Source: a virus
Lineage: Duplodnaviria > Heunggongvirae > Uroviricota > Caudoviricetes
IMG/VR virus record: IMGVR_UViG_644736359_000006
DNA: 31,135 nucleotides
Reading direction: 5' to 3' (one strand)
Of this stretch, positions 9,205-31,135 are shown in pieces. A program made the position numbers and the translations under genes. The notes under the pieces are model-generated. The model made no database searches and was not told the DNA's origin. It worked only from the letters and a program-made list of their open reading frames with translations. The first letter of the stretch is position 1. Each line of letters begins with the position of its first letter.

Positions 9205-9513
9205 GTGACTCACATGACAAAAACAGTATCAACCAGTAAAAAACCCCGTAAACAGCATTCGCCTGAATTTCGCAGTGAAGCCCTGAAGCTTGCTGAACGC
9301 ATCGGTGTTACTGCCGCAGCCCGTGAACTCAGCCTGTATGAATCACAGCTCTACAACTGGCGCAGTAAACAGCAAAATCAGCAGACGTCTTCTGAACGTG
9401 AACTGGAGATGTCTACCGAGATTGCACGTCTCAAACGCCAGCTGGCAGAACGGGATGAAGAGCTGGCTATCCTCCAAAAGGCCGCGACATACTTCGCGAA
9501 GCGCCTGAAATGA
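9205..9513 (+). CDS. insE: IS3 OrfA (InsE), HTH transposase component
   Basis: ORF ...[31 protein letters not shown]... with C-terminal leucine-zipper-like region; first ATG at 9205, conventional start a few codons later. Confidence 0.85.
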
Positions 9514-10376
9514 AGTATGTCTTTATTGAAAAACATCAGGCTGAGTTCAGCATCAAAGCAATGTGCCGCGTGCTCCGGGTGGCCCGCAGCGGCTGGTATA
9601 CGTGGTGTCAGCGGCGGACAAGGATAAGCACGCGTCAGCAGTTCCGCCAACACTGCGACAGCGTTGTCCTCGCGGCTTTTACCCGGTCAAAACAGCGTTA
9701 CGGTGCCCCACGCCTGACGGATGAACTGCGTGCTCAGGGTTACCCCTTTAACGTAAAAACCGTGGCGGCAAGCCTGCGCCGTCAGGGACTGAGGGCAAAG
9801 GCCTCCCGGAAGTTCAGCCCGGTCAGCTACCGCGCACACGGCCTGCCTGTGTCAGAAAATCTGTTGGAGCAGGATTTTTACGCCAGTGGCCCGAACCAGA
9901 AGTGGGCAGGAGACATCACGTACTTACGTACAGATGAAGGCTGGCTGTATCTGGCAGTGGTCATTGACCTGTGGTCACGTGCCGTTATTGGCTGGTCAAT
10001 GTCGCCACGCATGACGGCGCAACTGGCCTGCGATGCCCTGCAGATGGCGCTGTGGCGGCGTAAGAGGCCCCGGAACGTTATCGTTCACACGGACCGTGGA
10101 GGCCAGTACTGTTCAGCAGATTATCAGGCGCAACTGAAGCGGCATAATCTGCGTGGAAGTATGAGCGCAAAAGGTTGCTGCTACGATAATGCCTGCGTGG
10201 AAAGCTTCTTTCATTCGCTGAAAGTGGAATGTATCCATGGAGAACACTTTATCAGCCGGGAAATAATGCGGGCAACGGTGTTTAATTATATCGAATGTGA
10301 TTACAATCGGTGGCGGCGGCACAGTTGGTGTGGCGGCCTCAGTCCGGAACAATTTGAAAACAAGAACCTCGCTTAG
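9510..10376 (+). CDS. insF: IS3 OrfB (InsF), DDE transposase catalytic domain, in -1 frame relative to orfA
   Basis: 288-aa ORF overlapping the orfA stop (ATGA) in the -1 frame; DDE-type core ...HTDRGGQY... Confidence 0.85.
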
Positions 10377-11672: not shown

Positions 11673-11879
11673 CTTCATTTTCACTTTCTTAAATCTAACG
11701 ACAGACGGCTAACATTTAAGTATTGTGAAATATTATCAAATGTAATCATCATTGATTTACAAAAGATACATTTTGCCCCGAAAGGATTCCTGTCAGAAAC
11801 ATCAAAAGATGATGTTCTATACTGAGAACCATGGCAACACGGGCATCTAAAGTGAATATGGTTTGTAATATTTTCTACC

Positions 11880-12092
11880 TCAAAGTGCCACAACATGAAC
11901 AGCCGCGGGGCCTTTAGGTCCGTTCTCAATACCAAATTCGACTTCCTGATTCTCAGTTAACGTTTTGAAATCGTTGCTCTGAATAGCTGAGAAATGGACA
12001 AACACATCTTTGCTACCATCTTTCGGCGTGATGAAACCAAAACCTTTTTCAGGGTTAAACCATTTCACTAAACCAGTCATTTTGTTAGACAT
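11880..12092 (-). CDS. cspI: CspA-family cold shock protein
   Basis: 70-aa product [38 protein letters not shown]... with RNP1/RNP2 motifs; long AT-rich 5' leader upstream. Confidence 0.85.
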
Positions 12093-12455
12093 CATTATTA
12101 CCTTTTGAAGAAGTTAGCCCTTGGGCAGAATGGTCCGAAAAAAAATATCAGAGAGAAAAACCAACAAGGAAATCTCAAGAGGTACAAATAATAAAATTAT
12201 AACAATGACTGCTTCAGATAATTTTGTAACAAACCAGAACACCATTAACGCATGATTAACCAACCATAGCAAGGATTACTTTTGTAAAGAAAAACACACG
12301 AATGAAACAATAGCTTTATTTATTAATAAAACGTGTCATTCTGTCTAATGACCTTTTATCTTACCCTTAAGATTTCAAGGATTTTGACTCATGGAAGAGT
12401 CCTTTTTATTTAAATTTCACATTCAGCGCTAAAAATAATCCGATTTAATATTAAT

Positions 12456-16758: not shown

Positions 16759-17067
16759 GTGACTCACATGACAAAAACAGTATCAACCAGTAAAAAACCC
16801 CGTAAACAGCATTCGCCTGAATTTCGCAGTGAAGCCCTGAAGCTTGCTGAACGCATCGGTGTTACTGCCGCAGCCCGTGAACTCAGCCTGTATGAATCAC
16901 AACTCTACAACTGGCGCAGTAAACAGCAAAATCAGCAGACGTCTTCTGAACGTGAACTGGAGATGTCTACCGAGATTGCACGTCTCAAACGCCAGCTGGC
17001 AGAACGGGATGAAGAGCTGGCTATCCTCCAAAAGGCCGCGACATACTTCGCGAAGCGCCTGAAATGA
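16759..17067 (+). CDS. insE: IS3 OrfA (InsE)
   Basis: Identical product to copy 1 orfA. Confidence 0.85.
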
Positions 17068-17930
17068 AGTATGTCTTTATTGAAAAACATCAGGCTGAGT
17101 TCAGCATCAAAGCAATGTGCCGCGTGCTCCGGGTGGCCCGCAGCGGCTGGTATACGTGGTGTCAGCGGCGGACAAGGATAAGCACGCGTCAGCAGTTCCG
17201 CCAACACTGCGACAGCGTTGTCCTCGCGGCTTTTACCCGGTCAAAACAGCGTTACGGTGCCCCACGCCTGACGGATGAACTGCGTGCTCAGGGTTACCCC
17301 TTTAACGTAAAAACCGTGGCGGCAAGCCTGCGCCGTCAGGGACTGAGGGCAAAGGCCTCCCGGAAGTTCAGCCCGGTCAGCTACCGCGCACACGGCCTGC
17401 CTGTGTCAGAAAATCTGTTGGAGCAGGATTTTTACGCCAGTGGCCCGAACCAGAAGTGGGCAGGAGACATCACGTACTTACGTACAGATGAAGGCTGGCT
17501 GTATCTGGCAGTGGTCATTGACCTGTGGTCACGTGCCGTTATTGGCTGGTCAATGTCGCCACGCATGACGGCGCAACTGGCCTGCGATGCCCTGCAGATG
17601 GCGCTGTGGCGGCGTAAGAGGCCCCGGAACGTTATCGTTCACACGGACCGTGGAGGCCAGTACTGTTCAGCAGATTATCAGGCGCAACTGAAGCGGCATA
17701 ATCTGCGTGGAAGTATGAGCGCAAAAGGTTGCTGCTACGATAATGCCTGCGTGGAAAGCTTCTTTCATTCGCTGAAAGTGGAATGTATCCATGGAGAACA
17801 CTTTATCAGCCGGGAAATAATGCGGGCAACGGTGTTTAATTATATCGAATGTGATTACAATCGGTGGCGGCGGCACAGTTGGTGTGGCGGCCTCAGTCCG
17901 GAACAATTTGAAAACCAGAACCTCGCTTAG
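17064..17930 (+). CDS. insF: IS3 OrfB (InsF)
   Basis: As copy 1 but ...EQFENQNLA instead of ...EQFENKNLA. Confidence 0.85.
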
Positions 17931-20371: not shown

Positions 20372-20623
20372 TTATTCTTCTGCAAAAGCTGAAAAGCCTG
20401 CTTTTATTCCGATCTCTTTCAGTGCCTGTAATGAAGTGACAAACTCACCTTCGCGCAAGATAAATCCGTCTGTCACTCGACCATCCACAAAATTAATTAA
20501 CGCAGCCCCATTCTTTCGCAAACACATAATGCGGTAATGACTAACAAGATTTCCATTTTCAACGCACACAGCATAGAGGCCATCTTCACAAAAATTTTTA
20601 CGCAGTTCTTCGATGTTCATCAT
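20372..20623 (-). CDS. Hypothetical protein at the rem position
   Basis: 83-aa ORF; length and position relative to hok match rem of Qin, but sequence not verified. Confidence 0.4.
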   Translation of the reverse strand: MMNIEELRKNFCEDGLYAVCVENGNLVSHYRIMCLRKNGAALINFVDGRVTDGFILREGEFVTSLQALKEIGIKAGFSAFAEE

Positions 20624-20839: not shown

Positions 20840-20995
20840 TTACTCCTCAGGTTCGTAAGCTGTGAAGACAGCGACCTCCGTCTGGCCGGTTCGGATTCGT
20901 ACCTCGCAGAGGTCTTTCCTCGTTACCAGTGCCGTCACTATGACGGTTAAACAGATGACGATCAGGGCGATTAACATCGCCTTTTGCTGCTTCAT
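20840..20995 (-). CDS. hokD: Hok-family type I toxin
   Basis: 51-aa product MKQQKAMLIALIVICLTVIVTALVTRKDLCEVRIRTGQTEVAVFTAYEPEE; in-frame upstream extension (mok-like) in the ORF track; AAGGAGAAG RBS. Confidence 0.85.
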   Translation of the reverse strand: MKQQKAMLIALIVICLTVIVTALVTRKDLCEVRIRTGQTEVAVFTAYEPEE

Positions 20996-21607
20996 AGCCT
21001 GCTTCTCCTTGCCTTTCGGCACGTAAGAGGCTAACCTACATGTGTCTAGCATGAAATTGGCCTCAGATTAATGTTAAGCGTCTTGCAGGACGCGTAATGT
21101 TAACTGGGGCTTTTCTCTATCTGCCGTTGGTGTTCATGCCCGAGGCAGATAGCCTCAAGCACCCGCAGCCATTCTACTTAACTACCGTTACCTCTCCAAT
21201 ATGAAATCAATCAGAAAGGTGATCCATAAGAACAATAACAAGACAATAAATTGCCATTACAGCCACAATAGCCAGCGTGCATTTGAGAACCAGCACATAA
21301 ATCTCCTGCTCTTGACGTATACAGGCACTGATAAATATGTGTCTTCGTGCTCGTTACTTCAATACGTAAGCGTCAGTTGCGCGTAATCAAATCAGACAAC
21401 CGACTTTAAACCAGGGACAAACAGCAGGTAAAATAATCAAACGTTATTTTAAGCCATATCATGGCTGCAAGATTTCCTCTAATTTCAACAAGATGAGCAG
21501 GTCATTGCTTGCACTGATGACCTGCTCATTAATCATGATTATTTGAAAATTAAGGTAGGCGTACTATATATAGAAACACTGCTACGCTCCGTTGGCATAA
21601 TATAAAA

Positions 21608-24039: not shown

Positions 24040-24487
24040 TTGCTTTTTCTATAAGTTCGTCAGTTTCACGATCTACAACGGCAGGATCTGCAAAAAGCAG
24101 TCCGGATTCCACCACATCGCCATATTCTTTATTTAACCCGGCGATCATGTACGTAATACTTTTTCCATCACTGATCTCACGATACAACCTGAAATCACTA
24201 ATCCGGATAGCCTCCATAATTGCAGGCACTAGCGCTGTGAACTTTTCACGCTTATCCCTGGTGTCGATAGCCTTCCAGCGTTCGAATATCTTCACTCGAT
24301 TAACGCTAAGCGCTCGCTGATCAACCGCGCCACCTTCATATGTGACACGCTGAACATCGATGTTCGGGCGCTCTTTCAAAGCCCAGAATGCTTCAGTGAT
24401 TAATATCGTCGCCTGCTCCTGTGTCATTCCTGGTCGACATATCCAGGCATCCAGAGCCTCACGAGCCTGTTCAGGAGTGATTTTCAT
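23966..24487 (-). CDS. Hypothetical protein at the cII position
   Basis: 173-aa ORF overlapping both neighbours (operon coupling); possibly YdaT-like, not verified. Confidence 0.4.
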   Translation of the reverse strand: MKITPEQAREALDAWICRPGMTQEQATILITEAFWALKERPNIDVQRVTYEGGAVDQRALSVNRVKIFERWKAIDTRDKREKFTALVPAIMEAIRISDFRLYREISDGKSITYMIAGLNKEYGDVVESGLLFADPAVVDRETDELIEKAIAFKLAYRQQYQQKAGWNYESSFC

Positions 24488-24701
24488 TGTTCAACCGCCC
24501 CGCCCGCTTCGTCTTACGATATTCGTCATAAACTTTGGGATCATACTGAAGCTCCCCGCCAGATGCCTCCTGTAGACGCATCGCGCGACCTTCAGGAACC
24601 AGTATCCCCCAAGCAGCAACACTTGCCAGTCTCACTCCTGCGGCATTGGCAAGCTTTGTTTTGCTGCCAAAAAAAGTAATTGCGTCAACTTTAAGCATCA
24701 A
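24471..24701 (-). CDS. dicC: DicC-like (Cro-like) regulator
   Basis: 76-aa ORF MMLKVDAITFFGSKTKLANAAGVRLASVAAWG... with HTH; divergent from dicA across a 77-bp operator region. Confidence 0.65.
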   Translation of the reverse strand: MMLKVDAITFFGSKTKLANAAGVRLASVAAWGILVPEGRAMRLQEASGGELQYDPKVYDEYRKTKRAGRLNNENHS

Positions 24702-24710
24702 AGCCCCCTC

Positions 24711-24730
24711 TTGTTAGACTTTTCTAACAT
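24711..24730. promoter_or_regulatory. Operator palindrome in dicC-dicA intergenic region
   Basis: TTGTTAGA-cttt-TCTAACA inverted repeat. Confidence 0.55.
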
Positions 24731-24778
24731 TATTGTGCGCGGGATACCTAAGTCAAGAAAAATTAGAATTACCTAACT

Positions 24779-25186
24779 ATGGATACAAGAACCCTAGGCC
24801 AGCGAGTTCTGGCGCGACGAAAAGAATTACGCTTAACACAACGAGAAGCTGCGCGCCTCGCTGGAGTTGCTCACGTCACAATTTCACAATGGGAAAGAGA
24901 CGAAACCCAGCCAGTCGGAAAACGATTGTTTGCTTTAGCGGATGCTCTGAAGTGCTCACCTACATGGCTAATGTTTGGTGACGAAGACAAGGCACCAGTG
25001 CCTGCACAAGAACTTCATGTGGAAACAGAGCTAACTCCCAACCACAAAGAATTGATCGAATTATTCGATGCTCTTCCATCTTCCGAGCAGGAAGCCTTGC
25101 TGTCTGAAATGCGCGCAAGAGTAGAAAACTTCAACAAACTCTTCGAAGAAATGCTTAAAGCGCGTAAAAATAAATCAATAAAATAA
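24779..25186 (+). CDS. dicA: DicA-family XRE HTH repressor
   Basis: 135-aa ORF with motifs ...LTQREAARLAGVAHVTISQWERDETQP...SPTWLMFGDEDK...MRARVENFNKLFEEMLKARK. Confidence 0.85.
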   Translation: MDTRTLGQRVLARRKELRLTQREAARLAGVAHVTISQWERDETQPVGKRLFALADALKCSPTWLMFGDEDKAPVPAQELHVETELTPNHKELIELFDALPSSEQEALLSEMRARVENFNKLFEEMLKARKNKSIK

Positions 25187-25354: not shown

Positions 25355-25507
25355 ATGGATACTATCGATCTTGGCAACAGCGAATCTCTGGTATGTGGCG
25401 TGTTCCCCAACCAGGACGGTACGTTCACCGCGATGACATATACCAAAAGCAAAACGTTTAAAACCGAATCTGGCGCGCGTTGCTGGTTAGCCAGAAACAC
25501 TGACTGA
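25355..25507 (+). CDS. ydfA: YdfA-like small protein
   Basis: 50-aa product MDTIDLGNSESLVCGVFPNQDGTFTAMTYTKSKTFKTESGARCWLARNTD; GAGG RBS. Confidence 0.6.
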   Translation: MDTIDLGNSESLVCGVFPNQDGTFTAMTYTKSKTFKTESGARCWLARNTD

Positions 25508-25884
25508 TGAGGCTGACGATGGAATTTAAAGATTTACCGTCTGATGTACAGAAAACAGCAGCTCATACATTGCATTCTGTGCTGCGAGAAATCGGGAAAG
25601 ATATTGCAAGCGAGCCAGCAAAAGATCTGGCCCGGAAAATCAAGACCGCTTTCGTTGAGCTTTATAATGTTGGCACTGACTCTGAAACTGTCGAGACCAA
25701 GACCGTAAGTTCACCAATATTCTCACTTGAGCCAGGCGTATTATCAGGTGAAATATGCACCGAGATTTCCAGCGAACTGCTTCCGGTAATACGAGAAGCA
25801 ATTTGCCGTCGCGGTTTGGATGGAAGTTACGATCATGACGTCCTGCAAGTTCTCAGGACAATGGTGACTTCACTGGGGATTTGA
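25507..25884 (+). CDS. YdfB/YdfC-like protein (single 125-aa ORF)
   Basis: Start overlaps the ydfA stop (TGATG); family assignment from position only. Confidence 0.5.
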   Translation: MRLTMEFKDLPSDVQKTAAHTLHSVLREIGKDIASEPAKDLARKIKTAFVELYNVGTDSETVETKTVSSPIFSLEPGVLSGEICTEISSELLPVIREAICRRGLDGSYDHDVLQVLRTMVTSLGI

Positions 25885-26053
25885 TCCCTGCGTCCTCTAA
25901 CCTTTTGATATAGCGGTCCTCCAAGAAGCGGTAAATTTTGTCGAAATCATCTTTCCCCTCTGGTTTATTCAGAGGATTACAGGACCCGTAAGTAGCGGCA
26001 TACATTTCAACCGTTTTATCAAAAATATAAGAGACAAATTCTTCTTTAGTCAT
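25853..26053 (-). CDS. Candidate antisense small protein inside the dicB operon
   Basis: 66-aa ORF MTKEEFVSYIFDKTVEMYAATYGSC... with AAGGAA RBS 6-7 nt upstream of ATG; convergent overlap with the 125-aa gene. Confidence 0.35.
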   Translation of the reverse strand: MTKEEFVSYIFDKTVEMYAATYGSCNPLNKPEGKDDFDKIYRFLEDRYIKRLEDAGIKSPVKSPLS

Positions 26054-26327
26054 ATAGATTTCCTTCTTGGTTATTCGGGATAAGAAGGATACCACCTCGC
26101 CTGACGTGGTTAAAAGCAGGCACACAACACGAAAGCGCACGGCGAAGTTCGTCTCACTGTACGGTGTCGTTAAATTTAATTCGACCGTGCGCTTCCGGTT
26201 GTGGCAACCCGCGAAATGGCGCGGCGGTAAGTATGGCGGGGTTATTCCTTCCCCGTTGAGGACACCGAGTTGTCAGGTTGACCATACGCTTAAGTGACAA
26301 CCCCGCTGCAACGCCCTCTGTTATCAA

Positions 26328-26380
26328 TTTTCTGGTGACGTTTGGCGGTATCAGTTTTACTCCGTGACTGCTCTGCCGCC
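26328..26380 (+). ncRNA. dicF: DicF small RNA
   Basis: Sequence tttctggtgacgtttggcggtatcagttttactccgtgactgctctgccgcc followed by gttttt matches the 53-nt DicF with its 3' terminator hairpin. Confidence 0.85.
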
Positions 26381-26555
26381 GTTTTTAAAGTGAATTTTGT
26401 GATGCGGTGAATGCGGCTAAGCGCACGCGGAACAGTTAAAACCAAAAACAGTGTTATGGGTGGATTCTCTGTATCCGGCGTTAATTGTTAACTGGTTAAC
26501 GTCACCTGGAGGCACCAGGCACTGCATCACAAAATTCATTGTTGAGGACGCGATA

Positions 26556-26744
26556 ATGAAAACGTTATTACCAAACGTTAATACGTCTGAAGGTTGTTTT
26601 GAAATTGGTGTCACTATCAGTAACCCTGTATTTACTGAAGATGCCATTAACAAGAGAAAACAAGAACGGGAGCTATTAAATAAAATATGCATTGTTTCAA
26701 TGCTGGCTCGTTTACGTCTGATGCCAAAAGGATGTACACAATGA
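26556..26744 (+). CDS. dicB: Cell division inhibitor DicB
   Basis: 62-aa product MKTLLPNVNTSEGCFEIGVTISNPVFTEDAINKRKQERELLNKICIVSMLARLRLMPKGCTQ; GAGGA RBS. Confidence 0.85.
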   Translation: MKTLLPNVNTSEGCFEIGVTISNPVFTEDAINKRKQERELLNKICIVSMLARLRLMPKGCTQ

Positions 26745-26932
26745 ATTCAGCATTTGCGCTTGTTCTGACAGTTTTTCTTGTTTCCGGAGAGCCAGTTGAT
26801 ATTGCAGACAGTGTTCACAGGACAATGCAGGAGTGTATGACTGCAGCAACCGAACAGAAAATTCCCGGTAACTGTTACCCGGTCGATAAAGTTATTCACC
26901 AGGATAATATCGAAATCCCGGCAGGTCTTTAA
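26741..26932 (+). CDS. ydfD: YdfD-like small membrane (lysis-associated) protein
   Basis: 63-aa product with N-terminal hydrophobic helix; ATG overlaps the dicB stop (ATGA). Confidence 0.75.
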   Translation: MNSAFALVLTVFLVSGEPVDIADSVHRTMQECMTAATEQKIPGNCYPVDKVIHQDNIEIPAGL

Positions 26933-27025
26933 AACAGTTCCGTAATAAATATCCGGTTTCATTCTTATATGCCAGCAATGGCAGGGATTTGTTCATCCTT
27001 AAATCTGTCATGAGGTTAAAACAAA

Positions 27026-29497
27026 ATGAGTAAAGTCTTTATTTGCGCCGCTATTCCTGACGAACTGGCAACAAGGGAAGAAGGCGCTGTGGCTGTAGCC
27101 ACAGCCATTGAAGCTGGCGACGAACGCCGTGCTCGAGCAAAATTTCACTGGCAGTTCCTGGAACATTATCCGGCTGCTCAGGACTGCGCTTATAAATTTA
27201 TTGTCTGCGAGGATAAACCTGGCATACCCCGCCCTGCCCTCGATTCATGGGATGCTGAATATATGCAGGAAAACCGCTGGGATGAGGAGTCTGCTTCTTT
27301 TGTCCCGGTTGAGACTGAATCCGATCCGATGAACGTCACTTTTGACAAGCTGGCCCCTGAAGTACAGAACGCTGTCATGGTTAAGTTCGACACATGTGAA
27401 AACATCACCGTTGATATGGTTATTAGCGCACAGGAATTGTTGCAGGAAGACATGGCAACATTCGACGGACATATCGTTGAAGCGTTGATGAAAATGCCAG
27501 AAGTTAACGCCATGTATCCGGAGCTTAAGTTGCACGCCATTGGGTGGGTTAAGCATAAATGTATTCCTGGTGCTAAATGGCCCGAAATTCAGGCAGAGAT
27601 GCGCATCTGGAAAAAACGTCGCGAAGGTGAACGCAAGGAAACCGGAAAATACACGTCTGTTGTTGATCTCGCCCGCGCCAGAGCCAATCAACAGTACACT
27701 GAAAATTCAACAGGAAAAATCAGCCCGGTCATTGCTGCCATTCATCGCGAATACAAGCAGACATGGAAAACACTGGATGACGAACTGGCCTACGCTCTCT
27801 GGCCTGGTGATGTGGATGCCGGAAACATTGACGGCAGCATCCATCGCTGGGCAAAAAAAGAAGTTATCGACAACGACCGCGAAGACTGGAAGCGTATCTC
27901 GGCATCAATGCGCAAACAGCCTGATGCCCTTCGCTACGACCGCCAAACTATTTTTGGCCTTGTCCGTGAGCGTCCGATCGACATTCACAAAGATCCCGTA
28001 GCACTGAACAAATATATCTGCGAATACCTGACGACAAAGGGCGTGTTTGAGAATGAAGAAACAGACCTGGGCACTGTTGATGTTCTCCAGTCATCAGAAA
28101 CACAAACTGATGCAGTGGAAACTGAGGTATCTGATATCCCAAAAAATGAAACCGCGCCGGAAGCTGAACCATCTGTAGAGCGTGAGGGGCCGTTCTATTT
28201 CCTCTTCGCAGATAAGGACGGAGAAAAATACGGTCGCGCAAACAAACTTTCTGGTCTGGATAAGGCACTGGCTGCTGGCGCCACTGAAATCACAAAAGAA
28301 GAATATTTTGCCCGAAAAAATGGCACATACACGGGCTTACCGCAAAATGTAGATACCGCTGAAGATTCAGAACAACCAGAGCCGATAAAAGTTACCGCTG
28401 ACGAAGTAAACAAAATTATGCAGGCAGCCAATATCAGCCAGCCTGACGCCGATAAGTTGCTTGCTGCATCACATGGTGAATTTGTTGAAGGGATTAGTGA
28501 CCCGAATGATCCGAAATGGGTTAAGGGGATCCAGACCCGCGATTCTGTGAACCAGAACCAGCATGAATCGGAACGGAACTACCAAAAAGCGGAACAAAAC
28601 AGCCCAAATGCGTTACAAAACGAGCCAGAAACGAAACAGCCTGAACCAGTGGCGCAACAGGAAGTGGAAAAAGTCTGCACCGCCTGCGGTCAGACCGGCG
28701 GCGGCAACTGCCCTGATTGTGGCGCGGTGATGGGCGACGCAACATACCAAAAAACATTCGATGAAGAGTATCAGGTTGAAGTTCAGGAAGATGATCCGGA
28801 GGAAATGGAAGGCGCTGAACATCCACACAAGGAGAACACTGGCGGCAATCAGCATCACAATAGCGATAATGAAACTGGCGAGACGGCAGATCACTCAATT
28901 AAGGTGAACAGTCATCACGAAATCACATCCACCAGCAGGACGTGTGACCATCTAATGATCGACCTTGAAACCATGGGAAAAAATCCTGATGCACCGATCA
29001 TCTCAATAGGTGCAATATTTTTCGATCCGCAAACCGGAGATATAGGACCGGAATTTAGTAAGACTATCGATCTGGAAACTGCTGGCGGAGTCATTGATCG
29101 GGACACCATTAAATGGTGGCTTAAGCAATCACGCGAAGCACAATCTGCCATTATGACCGATGAAATCCCGCTAGATGATGCACTGTTACAATTGCGGGAA
29201 TTTATCGACGAAAACTCCGGTGAATTTTTTGTTCAGGTTTGGGGAAATGGAGCCAACTTCGACAACACGATTTTGCGCCGTTCATACGAACGGCAGGGGA
29301 TCCCCTGCCCGTGGCGTTACTACAACGATCGCGATGTACGCACAATCGTTGAGCTGGGGAAAGCCATAGATTTCGATGCCAGAACGGCTATTCCATTCGA
29401 AGGTGAGCGCCATAATGCACTTGATGACGCCCGTTACCAAGCAAAATACGTTTCAGTTATCTGGCAAAAACTGATCCCGAGTCAGGCTGATTCTTAA
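27026..29497 (+). CDS. ydfE: Full-length YdfE-type exonuclease: RecE-like N-terminal region, zinc ribbon, C-terminal DnaQ-like DEDDh 3'-5' exonuclease domain
   Basis: 823-aa ORF; ...ADKLLAASHGEFVEGISDPNDPKWVKGIQTRDSV... ; CTACGQ...CPDCG; C-terminal MIDLETMGKNPDAPIISIGAIFFD...HNALDDARYQAKY. Confidence 0.75.
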   Translation: MSKVFICAAIPDELATREEGAVAVATAIEAGDERRARAKFHWQFLEHYPAAQDCAYKFIVCEDKPGIPRPALDSWDAEYMQENRWDEESASFVPVETESDPMNVTFDKLAPEVQNAVMVKFDTCENITVDMVISAQELLQEDMATFDGHIVEALMKMPEVNAMYPELKLHAIGWVKHKCIPGAKWPEIQAEMRIWKKRREGERKETGKYTSVVDLARARANQQYTENSTGKISPVIAAIHREYKQTWKTLDDELAYALWPGDVDAGNIDGSIHRWAKKEVIDNDREDWKRISASMRKQPDALRYDRQTIFGLVRERPIDIHKDPVALNKYICEYLTTKGVFENEETDLGTVDVLQSSETQTDAVETEVSDIPKNETAPEAEPSVEREGPFYFLFADKDGEKYGRANKLSGLDKALAAGATEITKEEYFARKNGTYTGLPQNVDTAEDSEQPEPIKVTADEVNKIMQAANISQPDADKLLAASHGEFVEGISDPNDPKWVKGIQTRDSVNQNQHESERNYQKAEQNSPNALQNEPETKQPEPVAQQEVEKVCTACGQTGGGNCPDCGAVMGDATYQKTFDEEYQVEVQEDDPEEMEGAEHPHKENTGGNQHHNSDNETGETADHSIKVNSHHEITSTSRTCDHLMIDLETMGKNPDAPIISIGAIFFDPQTGDIGPEFSKTIDLETAGGVIDRDTIKWWLKQSREAQSAIMTDEIPLDDALLQLREFIDENSGEFFVQVWGNGANFDNTILRRSYERQGIPCPWRYYNDRDVRTIVELGKAIDFDARTAIPFEGERHNALDDARYQAKYVSVIWQKLIPSQADS

Positions 29498-29569: not shown

Positions 29570-29821
29570 ATGAGCGAAGTAATCATGATTGTCTCTCCCG
29601 GCAAATGGGTATCCGAAGAGCAGTTAATTGCGCTGAAAGGAATAAAAAAAGGTACGTTAAAAAAGGCCCGGGAAAAATCGTTTATGGAAGGAAGGGAATA
29701 TAAGCATGTCGCTCATGACGGTATGCCATGGGATAACAGTCCATGCTTTTACAACCTGGAAGAAATTGATCGCTGGATTGAGCGCCAGGCATCAGCGAGA
29801 CCAAGACGTCATCTTACTTGA
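29570..29821 (+). CDS. xis: Excisionase-like protein
   Basis: 83-aa ORF immediately upstream of int; basic, small; family recognition moderate. Confidence 0.55.
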   Translation: MSEVIMIVSPGKWVSEEQLIALKGIKKGTLKKAREKSFMEGREYKHVAHDGMPWDNSPCFYNLEEIDRWIERQASARPRRHLT

Positions 29822-29840: not shown

Positions 29841-31135
29841 ATGAGAGAAGTTGAAATGAAATATCCGACAGGCGTGGAAAACCATGGAGGGAAATTACGT
29901 ATCTGGTTTGTTTATAAAGGCGTAAGAGTCAGGGAAAATCTGGGGGTTCCTGACACAGCAAAAAACAGGCGCGTTGCAGGTGAACTACGCGCCTCTGTTT
30001 GTTACGCAATAAAAACTGGTGTTTTCGACTATGCAAAACAGTTTCCCTCCTCACGCAATCTGGAAAAATTTGGTGAGGCCCGACAAGATTTAACCATAAA
30101 AGAACTGGCTGAAAAATTTCTGGCACTAAAAGAAACTGAAGTCGCCAAAACATCACTCAACACATACCGTGCCGTCATCAAAAATATCCTGAGCATAATC
30201 GGTGAAAAAAATCTTGCCTCATCGATTAATAAAGAAAAATTACTGGAGGTTCGTAAAGAGCTACTGACTGGATACCAGATCCCCAAAAGTAACTATATTG
30301 TTACACAACCAGGGAGATCGGCTGTAACTGTAAATAATTACATGACAAATCTTAACGCCGTGTTCCAGTTTGGTGTTGATAACGGTTACCTGGCAGATAA
30401 TCCGTTTAAGGGGATCTCGCCATTAAAGGAATCAAGAACCATTCCGGATCCTCTTTCGCGGGAGGAATTTATCCGTCTTATCGATGCGTGCAGAAATCAG
30501 CAAGCAAAAAATTTATGGTGTGTTTCTGTTTATACTGGCATTCGCCCTGGTGAGCTGTGTGCACTTGGATGGGAGGACATAGATCTGAAAAATGGAACAA
30601 TGATGATCAGGAGAAATTTAGCAAAAGACCGTTTCACGGTACCAAAAACACAGGCGGGAACCAATCGGGTCATTCATCTTATTAAGCCAGCAATCGACGC
30701 TCTCCGGAGTCAGATGACATTAACGAGACTGAGCAAAGAGCATATCATTGATGTTCACCTCAGAGAGTATGGCAGAACAGAAAAACAAAATGCACCTTTG
30801 TTTTTCAACCTGAAGTGTCAGCGAGAGTAAAAAATTATGGTGACCATTTTACCGTTGACTCAATAAGGCAGATGTGGGACGCAGCGATAAAACGTGCCGG
30901 ACTCCGCCATCGAAAATCATATCAGTCGAGACATACTTATGCCTGCTGGTCGCTGACAGCTGGTGCTAACCCGGCATTTATAGCAAACCAGATGGGCCAT
31001 GCAGATGCGCAAATGGTATTTCAGGTATACGGAAAATGGATGTCTGAAAACAATAATGCACAGGTAGCTTTGTTAAATACACAGTTAAGCGAGTTTGCCC
31101 CAACCATGCCCCATAACGAAGCAATGAAAAATTAA
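29841..31135 (+). pseudogene. intQ: Tyrosine integrase, lambda-type, split by a frameshift near 30812-30830
   Basis: ORF 29841-30830 (N-terminal/core-binding part ...TGIRPGELCALGWEDIDL...) continues in another frame from 30815 (...HTYACWSLTAGANPAFIANQMGH..YGKWM..) containing the catalytic R/H/Y region. Confidence 0.75.

Follow-up and report, generated by a model that had tools for sequence, protein, structure and literature searches.

The dicF, dicB and ydfD genes

The DNA analysed here, hereafter the window, is a viral record of 31,135 nucleotides (IMG/VR IMGVR_UViG_644736359_000006) that carries, one behind the other on the plus strand, the genes for the small RNA DicF, the cell-division inhibitor DicB and the lysis protein YdfD (Table 1). 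The segment holding these genes belongs, in our judgement almost beyond doubt, to a pL-like early-left operon, 'dicBF', in the lambdoid prophage of Qin type that Escherichia coli B carries. A preliminary description of the window had claimed that dicF, DicB and YdfD are all present and intact, and Rfam, Pfam, NCBIfam and alignment with E. coli K-12 confirm it, with matches well above anything that chance would produce; indeed, by all the sequence-level criteria examined, the three products belong to known families. The order dicF-dicB-ydfD is shared with the Qin (Kim) prophage of K-12 MG1655 (ydfABC-dicF-dicB-ydfD-ydfE), and DNA identity to Qin is 98-99% between the RNase III hairpin that precedes dicF and the exonuclease gene. 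Base-by-base comparison of 26250-26932 with the K-12 locus likewise gave an identity of 98-99%, with 9 substitutions, and for 26112-27792 the value is 98.2%. The dicBF locus has been reported as widespread across E. coli prophages (PMC5069750), and in the genome collection searched the 801-bp region around the cassette has some match in 4741 of the 5426 complete genomes.

Table 1. Features of the window that bear on the dicF-dicB-ydfD cassette and its prophage
Feature	Position	Strand	Description
Cold-shock gene cspI, 5' UTR	11834-12250	-	cspA-type thermoregulator over cspI; Rfam RF01766, 109.8 bits
IS3, two copies	9214-10376 and 16768-17930		direct orientation
rem	20372-20623	-	homologue of the K-12 DicA antirepressor; BLASTP 78/82, 95% identity; RefSeq annotation
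hokD and sok antisense RNA	20840-21164	-	Rfam RF01794, 115 bits; only toxin-antitoxin element of the window
DicC (Cro-like)	24471-24698	-	NCBIfam NF007282, 165.8 bits; Pfam P22_Cro; BLASTP
Two operator-like palindromes	24713-24777	.	dicC-dicA intergenic region; OR equivalent
DicA-family repressor	24779-25186	+	135 aa; NCBIfam NF007257, Pfam HTH_3, BLASTP
Two operator-like palindromes, GTTAGATCAATCTAAC and GTTAGGTTATTCTAAA	25224-25275	+	overlap the putative dicBp; OL/pL equivalent
ydfA-like first operon gene	25355-25507	+	Pfam DUF1391, 94 bits; annotation
121-aa phage ORF	25519-25884	+	phrog_33007, E 1.2e-82; replaces K-12 ydfB/ydfC
66-aa convergent phage ORF	25853-26053	-	WP_000159335.1; phrog_34441, E 1.8e-49
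Long hairpin upstream of dicF	26120-26205	+	putative RNase III substrate that would yield the 190-nt DicF precursor
dicF	26329-26381	+	53-nt DicF sRNA gene, U-tract continuing to 26386; Rfam RF00039 and K-12 alignment
dicB	26556-26744	+	62-aa cell-division inhibitor, A61T relative to K-12; Pfam PF05358, NCBIfam NF049927, RefSeq WP_000854560.1
ydfD	26741-26932	+	63-aa lysis protein, V6A and V23D relative to K-12; Pfam DUF1482 (PF07358), RefSeq WP_001083270.1
Exonuclease gene	27026-29497	+	823 aa; early-left arm, downstream of the cassette; Pfam Rv2179c-like 3'-5' exonuclease at residues 642-813
xis	29570-29821	+	downstream of the exonuclease gene; annotation
int, frameshifted	29856-31135	+	downstream of xis; annotation

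DicF was one of the first bacterial sRNAs to be found. In the window, plus-strand positions 26330-26381 match the whole of the Rfam DicF model RF00039 (model positions 1-52 of 52), with 72.5 bits (E 2.3e-14) against a gathering score of 48. The 53-nt element of the preliminary description was thereby recovered; its start, however, had been placed at 26328, and the K-12 alignment gives 26329. The gene is identical to the annotated K-12 dicF at 52 of 53 nucleotides, and nucleotides 1-52, in which the two target-pairing regions and the stem of the terminator lie, are those of K-12. The sole change, C to G at nucleotide 53 (window position 26381), comes immediately after the 3' side of the terminator stem and has no part in the pairing predicted with ftsZ. 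The stem of the DicF terminator is interrupted and was missed by a terminator scan, but folding confirmed the hairpin; it is followed by UUUUU, is the same in both DicF alleles with nucleotide 53 unpaired, and has a predicted energy of -16.6 kcal/mol here versus -15.9 kcal/mol in K-12. Among E. coli complete-genome records, 890 have the exact 60-nt sequence with G53 as their best match and 3055 the K-12 sequence with C53, the two alleles together placing DicF, by 60-mer best matches, in about 3950 complete-genome records. G53 is also carried by the plaque-forming phage Tritos; it is a common allele, and the substitution looks harmless.

In K-12, DicF represses the translation of ftsZ through its 3' region and of xylR through its 5' end, and pykA is a further target that it represses, the pairing regions being the 3' half for ftsZ and pykA and the 5' end for xylR (PMC5069750). 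The ftsZ target is identical in strain B, the leader of which equals that of K-12 from -90 to +60, and the duplex predicted with the ftsZ ribosome-binding region is alike for the C53 and G53 alleles, nucleotide 53 being unpaired in both. The energy of this duplex was considered as evidence of pairing and rejected: the -41 kcal/mol returned by RNAduplex with the 150-nt ftsZ leader was equalled by 40 of 500 shuffled sRNAs. Because the energy is thus unexceptional, the claim that DicF pairs with ftsZ rests on the published mutational data.

Two observations concern how dicF is recorded elsewhere. RefSeq annotation by PGAP of the identical sequence, in BL21(DE3), B-DolR and others, lists dicB and ydfD and lacks a dicF ncRNA, and the 60-mer search likewise gives 'none' as the annotation under its matches; the sRNA is thus unannotated in most genomes. 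In addition, the 247 nt at 26319-26565, which comprise dicF and the spacer behind it, are 100% identical to 249906-250152 of MT713136.1 (Aeromonas phage AP1, 254 kb). The match lies near the end of that jumbo-phage record, is odd given that the host is unrelated, and may be an artefact of assembly or contamination.

A spacer of 174 nt with two substitutions relative to K-12 separates dicF from dicB, which is preceded by a Shine-Dalgarno-like GAGGA. On translation neither dicB nor ydfD contains a premature stop. DicB matches Pfam PF05358 with 136 bits (cutoff 27) over residues 1-62 of 62 and NCBIfam NF049927 with 132.3 bits (cutoff 100), the identical sequence is annotated as DicB in RefSeq (accession in Table 1), and the exact protein occurs on at least 1000 contigs. 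The gene differs from that of K-12 by one synonymous change and by A61T, the protein beginning MKTLLPN and equalling K-12 DicB through residue 60. Deletion of the C-terminal 8 residues of DicB leaves full toxicity, and the N-terminus (K2, L5) is essential (PMC4967827); A61T falls within the dispensable residues, and K2 and L5 are intact. DicB inhibits division via MinC, and when expressed from a plasmid it prevents colony formation by BL21(DE3), a derivative of strain B, the allele not being stated (PMC4967827). The DicB of strain B would be expected to bind MinC and inhibit the Z ring in the manner published for DicB. DicB is also reported to protect against phages that use ManYZ (PMC6832061).

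The coupling of dicB and ydfD that had been claimed for this locus is borne out by the sequence at 26741-26744: within ACAATGAAT the ATG of ydfD (26741-26743) and the TGA of dicB (26742-26744) overlap as ATGA, through which ydfD is translationally coupled to dicB. A Shine-Dalgarno-like AAGGA lies upstream of ydfD. The protein scores 87 bits against Pfam DUF1482 (PF07358; cutoff 25), is named 'lysis protein YdfD' in RefSeq, and its exact allele is found on at least 1000 contigs. Function requires intact termini and conserved cysteines (PMC8835842); both termini are intact here, and C32 and C45 are present. The label 'membrane peptide', under which YdfD had first been described in the window, identified the right gene but falls short, since this is a characterized lysis protein: it binds IspG and makes dividing cells lyse, an effect that DicB counteracts (PMC8835842). 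In the study that showed IspG to be the target, ydfD was obtained by amplification from BL21(DE3) and proved lytic; the ydfD sequence in the supplement of that study has the D23 codon string found here and is without the K-12 string, and the published forward primer imposes V6, so that the lytic clone covers D23 and not A6 (PMC8835842). By analogy with the BL21(DE3) clone, the A6/D23 YdfD of strain B would lyse cells and bind IspG. Two minus-strand ORFs that run across the cassette (26417-26692 and 26747-26962) were weighed as possible genes; they have no annotation in the identical RefSeq sequence.

Immunity region and operon upstream of dicF

The operon stands next to a region with the layout of lambdoid immunity, in which cI-like and cro-like genes diverge and repeated operators lie on both sides of the repressor gene. 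The cI-like protein scores 224.7 bits against NCBIfam NF007257, 'transcriptional repressor DicA' (cutoff 101), and is 57% identical to K-12 DicA by BLASTP; for the Cro-like DicC, whose NCBIfam score likewise exceeds the cutoff of its model, the identity is 85%. The pattern GTTAG-N6-CTAAC, with at most one mismatch, occurs at four sites in the 31 kb, all of them in the intergenic regions that flank the repressor gene, and these sites align with the K-12 operator regions, including the dicA-ydfA intergenic region, and share their half-sites. The pattern tried first, TTAGA-N6-TCTAA, had the wrong spacing and was discarded as noise (9 matches versus 14.8 expected). The layout of dicC, dicA and operon, the GTTAG-N6-CTAAC half-sites, rem and hokD are all shared with K-12 Qin, and the regulatory architecture is kept.

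A consensus promoter scan found no plus-strand promoter between dicA and ydfA, and the position of dicBp is for this reason taken from the K-12 alignment and the published transcript map (PMC10448788). The putative promoter, TTGCCT-17-TAAATT, agrees with the consensus at 8 of 12 positions and overlaps the second of the downstream palindromes. In K-12, dicBp is induced by deletion of dicA or by overproduction of Rem, an antirepressor of DicA that raises it 165-fold, and the filamentation that follows depends on DicF and DicB (PMC10448788). The window encodes a close homologue of Rem. It should be stressed, however, that its control of a repressor 57% identical to DicA is not assured, and because of this divergence and of the different genes between promoter and dicF, the route of derepression in strain B is one that we infer.

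Those different genes occupy 25498-26112, a stretch with no homology to K-12, where the 121-aa ORF and the convergent 66-aa ORF stand in place of ydfB and ydfC. Neither ORF has a Pfam or NCBIfam match. The 66-aa ORF is not in K-12 and overlaps the 3' end of its plus-strand neighbour by 32 nt; lying between promoter and dicF, it could cause transcriptional interference, and the two ORFs together could affect read-through to dicF. The terminator scan returned no plus-strand terminator-like site from the promoter region to dicF.

Homology to K-12 resumes at 26112, a mosaic junction separated by a few bases from the 5' side of the long hairpin. It follows that hairpin, dicF, dicB and ydfD travel as one block, the genes upstream of which are exchanged. 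A stem of ~25 bp is predicted alike in the window and in K-12 for this hairpin; the differences between K-12 and B in and around it lie mostly in its loop. In K-12, RNase III and RNase E process the polycistronic RNA to DicF, with a 190-nt precursor (PMC10448788), and a precursor of that length would place the cut at ~26192, in the 3' arm of the hairpin and 137 nt before the start of DicF. At the other end of the operon a weak terminator-like hairpin 3' of ydfD (26970-26983) fits the longest K-12 transcript, which ends after ydfD (PMC10448788).

It could be argued that an operon of the B/Tritos type differs from that of K-12 in its ratio of DicF to DicB output or in its route of induction. We regard this as unlikely. 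The candidate causes are a heteroimmune DicA, the 121-aa and convergent 66-aa ORFs, and G53, any of which could have this effect; with G53, the base of the DicF terminator might gain a U-G pair. Were the operon altered in this way, Rem might fail to act on it, the convergent gene might interfere with its transcription, or termination at DicF might change.

The prophage and its relatives

Positions 6200-31135 of the window match the genomes of E. coli B ATCC 11303 and B-DolR without a break at 100% identity, and its first 60 bases match them too. The 801 bp around the cassette are 100% identical in many genomes of the B lineage, including BL21(DE3), C41, C43 and NEB strains. By RefSeq coordinates the window extends from a truncated ydfJ to the end of the frameshifted integrase gene, beside rspB. 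This is the attachment context of K-12 Qin, which occupies the same chromosomal site between ydfJ and rspB. The preliminary description was right to call the prophage cryptic: its integrase is frameshifted, its tail genes are cut, two IS3 elements have inserted, and RefSeq annotates no head or terminase genes within it.

Comparison with K-12 Qin shows differences of several kinds. In the cassette, G53 replaces C in DicF, DicB carries A61T, and YdfD carries V6A and V23D; upstream, the repressor is the 57%-identical one, and the two phage ORFs take the place of ydfB/ydfC. Downstream, the exonuclease gene and xis are intact, whereas K-12 retains the IS2-truncated pseudogene ydfE, which represents the first ~255 codons of the exonuclease gene. 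The relBE pair, which follows hokD in K-12 Qin, is absent here; a gene resembling queH, part of a methyltransferase gene and a gene of the DUF977 family take its place. BL21(DE3) departs from the window in its turn, with a single IS3, loss of the genes between the two copies (lom, gnsB, cspI, lysis genes and others) and an exonuclease gene cut to 498 nt, all of which would fit a loss of DNA, in the BL21 lineage, from the ancestral-B sequence seen here.

The plaque-forming lambdoid phages Tritos (OV696610), HannyBb and mEp460 have a similar early-left operon. Tritos is 99.4% identical to 26300-26940, its DicF and tail, G53 included, being the same as those of the window, and its gene order (cro / cI - three small ORFs - dicF - dicB - ydfD - 823-aa exonuclease - xis - int) is also that found here. 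Unlike the window, with its frameshifted integrase, its IS3 elements and its lost morphogenesis genes, Tritos, a phage of 46 kb, is complete, its integrase is intact, and it carries ydfB/ydfC-like ORFs. With the 'exonuclease VIII' of Tritos the 823-aa protein shares 99% identity, and it equals K-12 ydfE over ~255 aa. Labels for this protein vary between 'exonuclease VIII', 'exonuclease' and '3'-5' exonuclease', the first of which looks questionable because the only Pfam domain is the C-terminal Rv2179c-like/RNase_T domain (DEDD-type).

Phage lambda has in the same place, between the repressor gene with pL and exo-xis-int, the small division inhibitor kil, which resembles the cassette in position and function. 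We know of no DicF-like sRNA in lambda. Both kil and the cassette are reported to be expressed on derepression and to block Z-ring formation (PMC3961180). Kil inhibits FtsZ in a ZipA-dependent manner, whereas DicB acts via MinC.

The toxicity of the cassette raises the question of whether it is a strict toxin-antitoxin or addiction module in which a cognate antitoxin stabilizes the prophage. Overexpression of any one of DicB, DicF and YdfD is toxic, DicB counteracts the lysis induced by YdfD, and a genuine hok/sok element lies elsewhere in the same prophage. Searches of 26100-27000 with Rfam, Pfam and NCBIfam, however, found no antitoxin family or antisense RNA, control is transcriptional, through a cI-like repressor and operators, and the place of the cassette, at the kil position of the early-left operon in viable lambdoid phages, fits host takeover and exclusion rather than addiction. 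As no antitoxin was found and control is exerted by a phage repressor, the cassette is not to be regarded as a toxin-antitoxin system, a reading to which we give almost no credence. The designation 'toxic module' in the preliminary description understates the known roles of the locus in phage exclusion and metabolic regulation.

Expression and function in strain B

The mechanism proposed for the operon of strain B is carried over from K-12. Downstream of its own gene, the DicA-family repressor would bind the GTTAG-N6-CTAAC operators, which overlap the promoter there, and so hold the operon off. Loss of the repressor, the Rem antirepressor, stochastic switching or stress would relieve this repression and allow a polycistronic RNA to be made, in which RNase III would cut the hairpin at ~26120-26205 and RNase E would trim to the 5' end of DicF. 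DicF would end at its own intrinsic terminator, and dicB and ydfD would be expressed from transcripts that read through it. With Hfq, the 3' half of DicF would pair with the ftsZ ribosome-binding region and block FtsZ synthesis, and its 5' end would regulate xylR. DicB would bind MinC and direct it to the Z ring, stopping division, and would block the entry of phage DNA through ManYZ. YdfD, finally, would bind IspG and cause dividing cells to lyse, an outcome that co-expressed DicB would counteract.

It is by homology, then, that we infer expression of the cassette, processing of its RNA and its phenotype in strain B. The identity of the ftsZ leader in the two strains and the killing of BL21(DE3) by plasmid-borne DicB speak for this transfer from K-12. 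In contrast with this proposal stands the view that the cassette is intact yet silent or non-functional in this strain, because the exchanged upstream genes and the convergent ORF keep transcripts from dicF and dicB, because the heteroimmune repressor cannot be relieved, or because G53, T61, A6 or D23 is inactivating. In keeping with such silence, the upstream part of the operon (25498-26112) is without K-12 homology, the operon contains a phage ORF on the minus strand, the repressor shares 57% identity with K-12 DicA, and no plus-strand promoter exceeded the threshold of the scan. Inactivation, however, is argued against by the finding that the alleles are very common in E. coli and occur in a plaque-forming phage, and the sites of the substitutions are ones for which tolerance has been shown or predicted. 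The operators, the position of the promoter and the RNase III hairpin are, moreover, conserved. A silent cassette is also at odds with a section heading in the work on YdfD, which states that ydfD mRNA levels, determined by RT-qPCR in BL21(DE3), increased under stress (PMC8835842). Silence thus appears very improbable, and a cassette that can be expressed remains the preferred reading. The further claim of the preliminary description, that derepression would block FtsZ function and cell division, is plausible on the basis of the K-12 experiments, from which a division block would be expected in strain B as well.

The dicBF operon is among the best-characterized loci of cryptic prophages, and the targets of DicB and YdfD are known. 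The division-inhibition and lysis cassette described here is the intact E. coli B version of this locus, an ordinary one that has been described before, and beyond its correct annotation there is little at stake. Strain B is a standard laboratory lineage. Ancestral E. coli B and the BL21 strains derived from it nevertheless carry a complete and probably inducible cassette for division inhibition and lysis, which is worth recalling if filamentation or lysis appears in these strains under stress or during protein overexpression.
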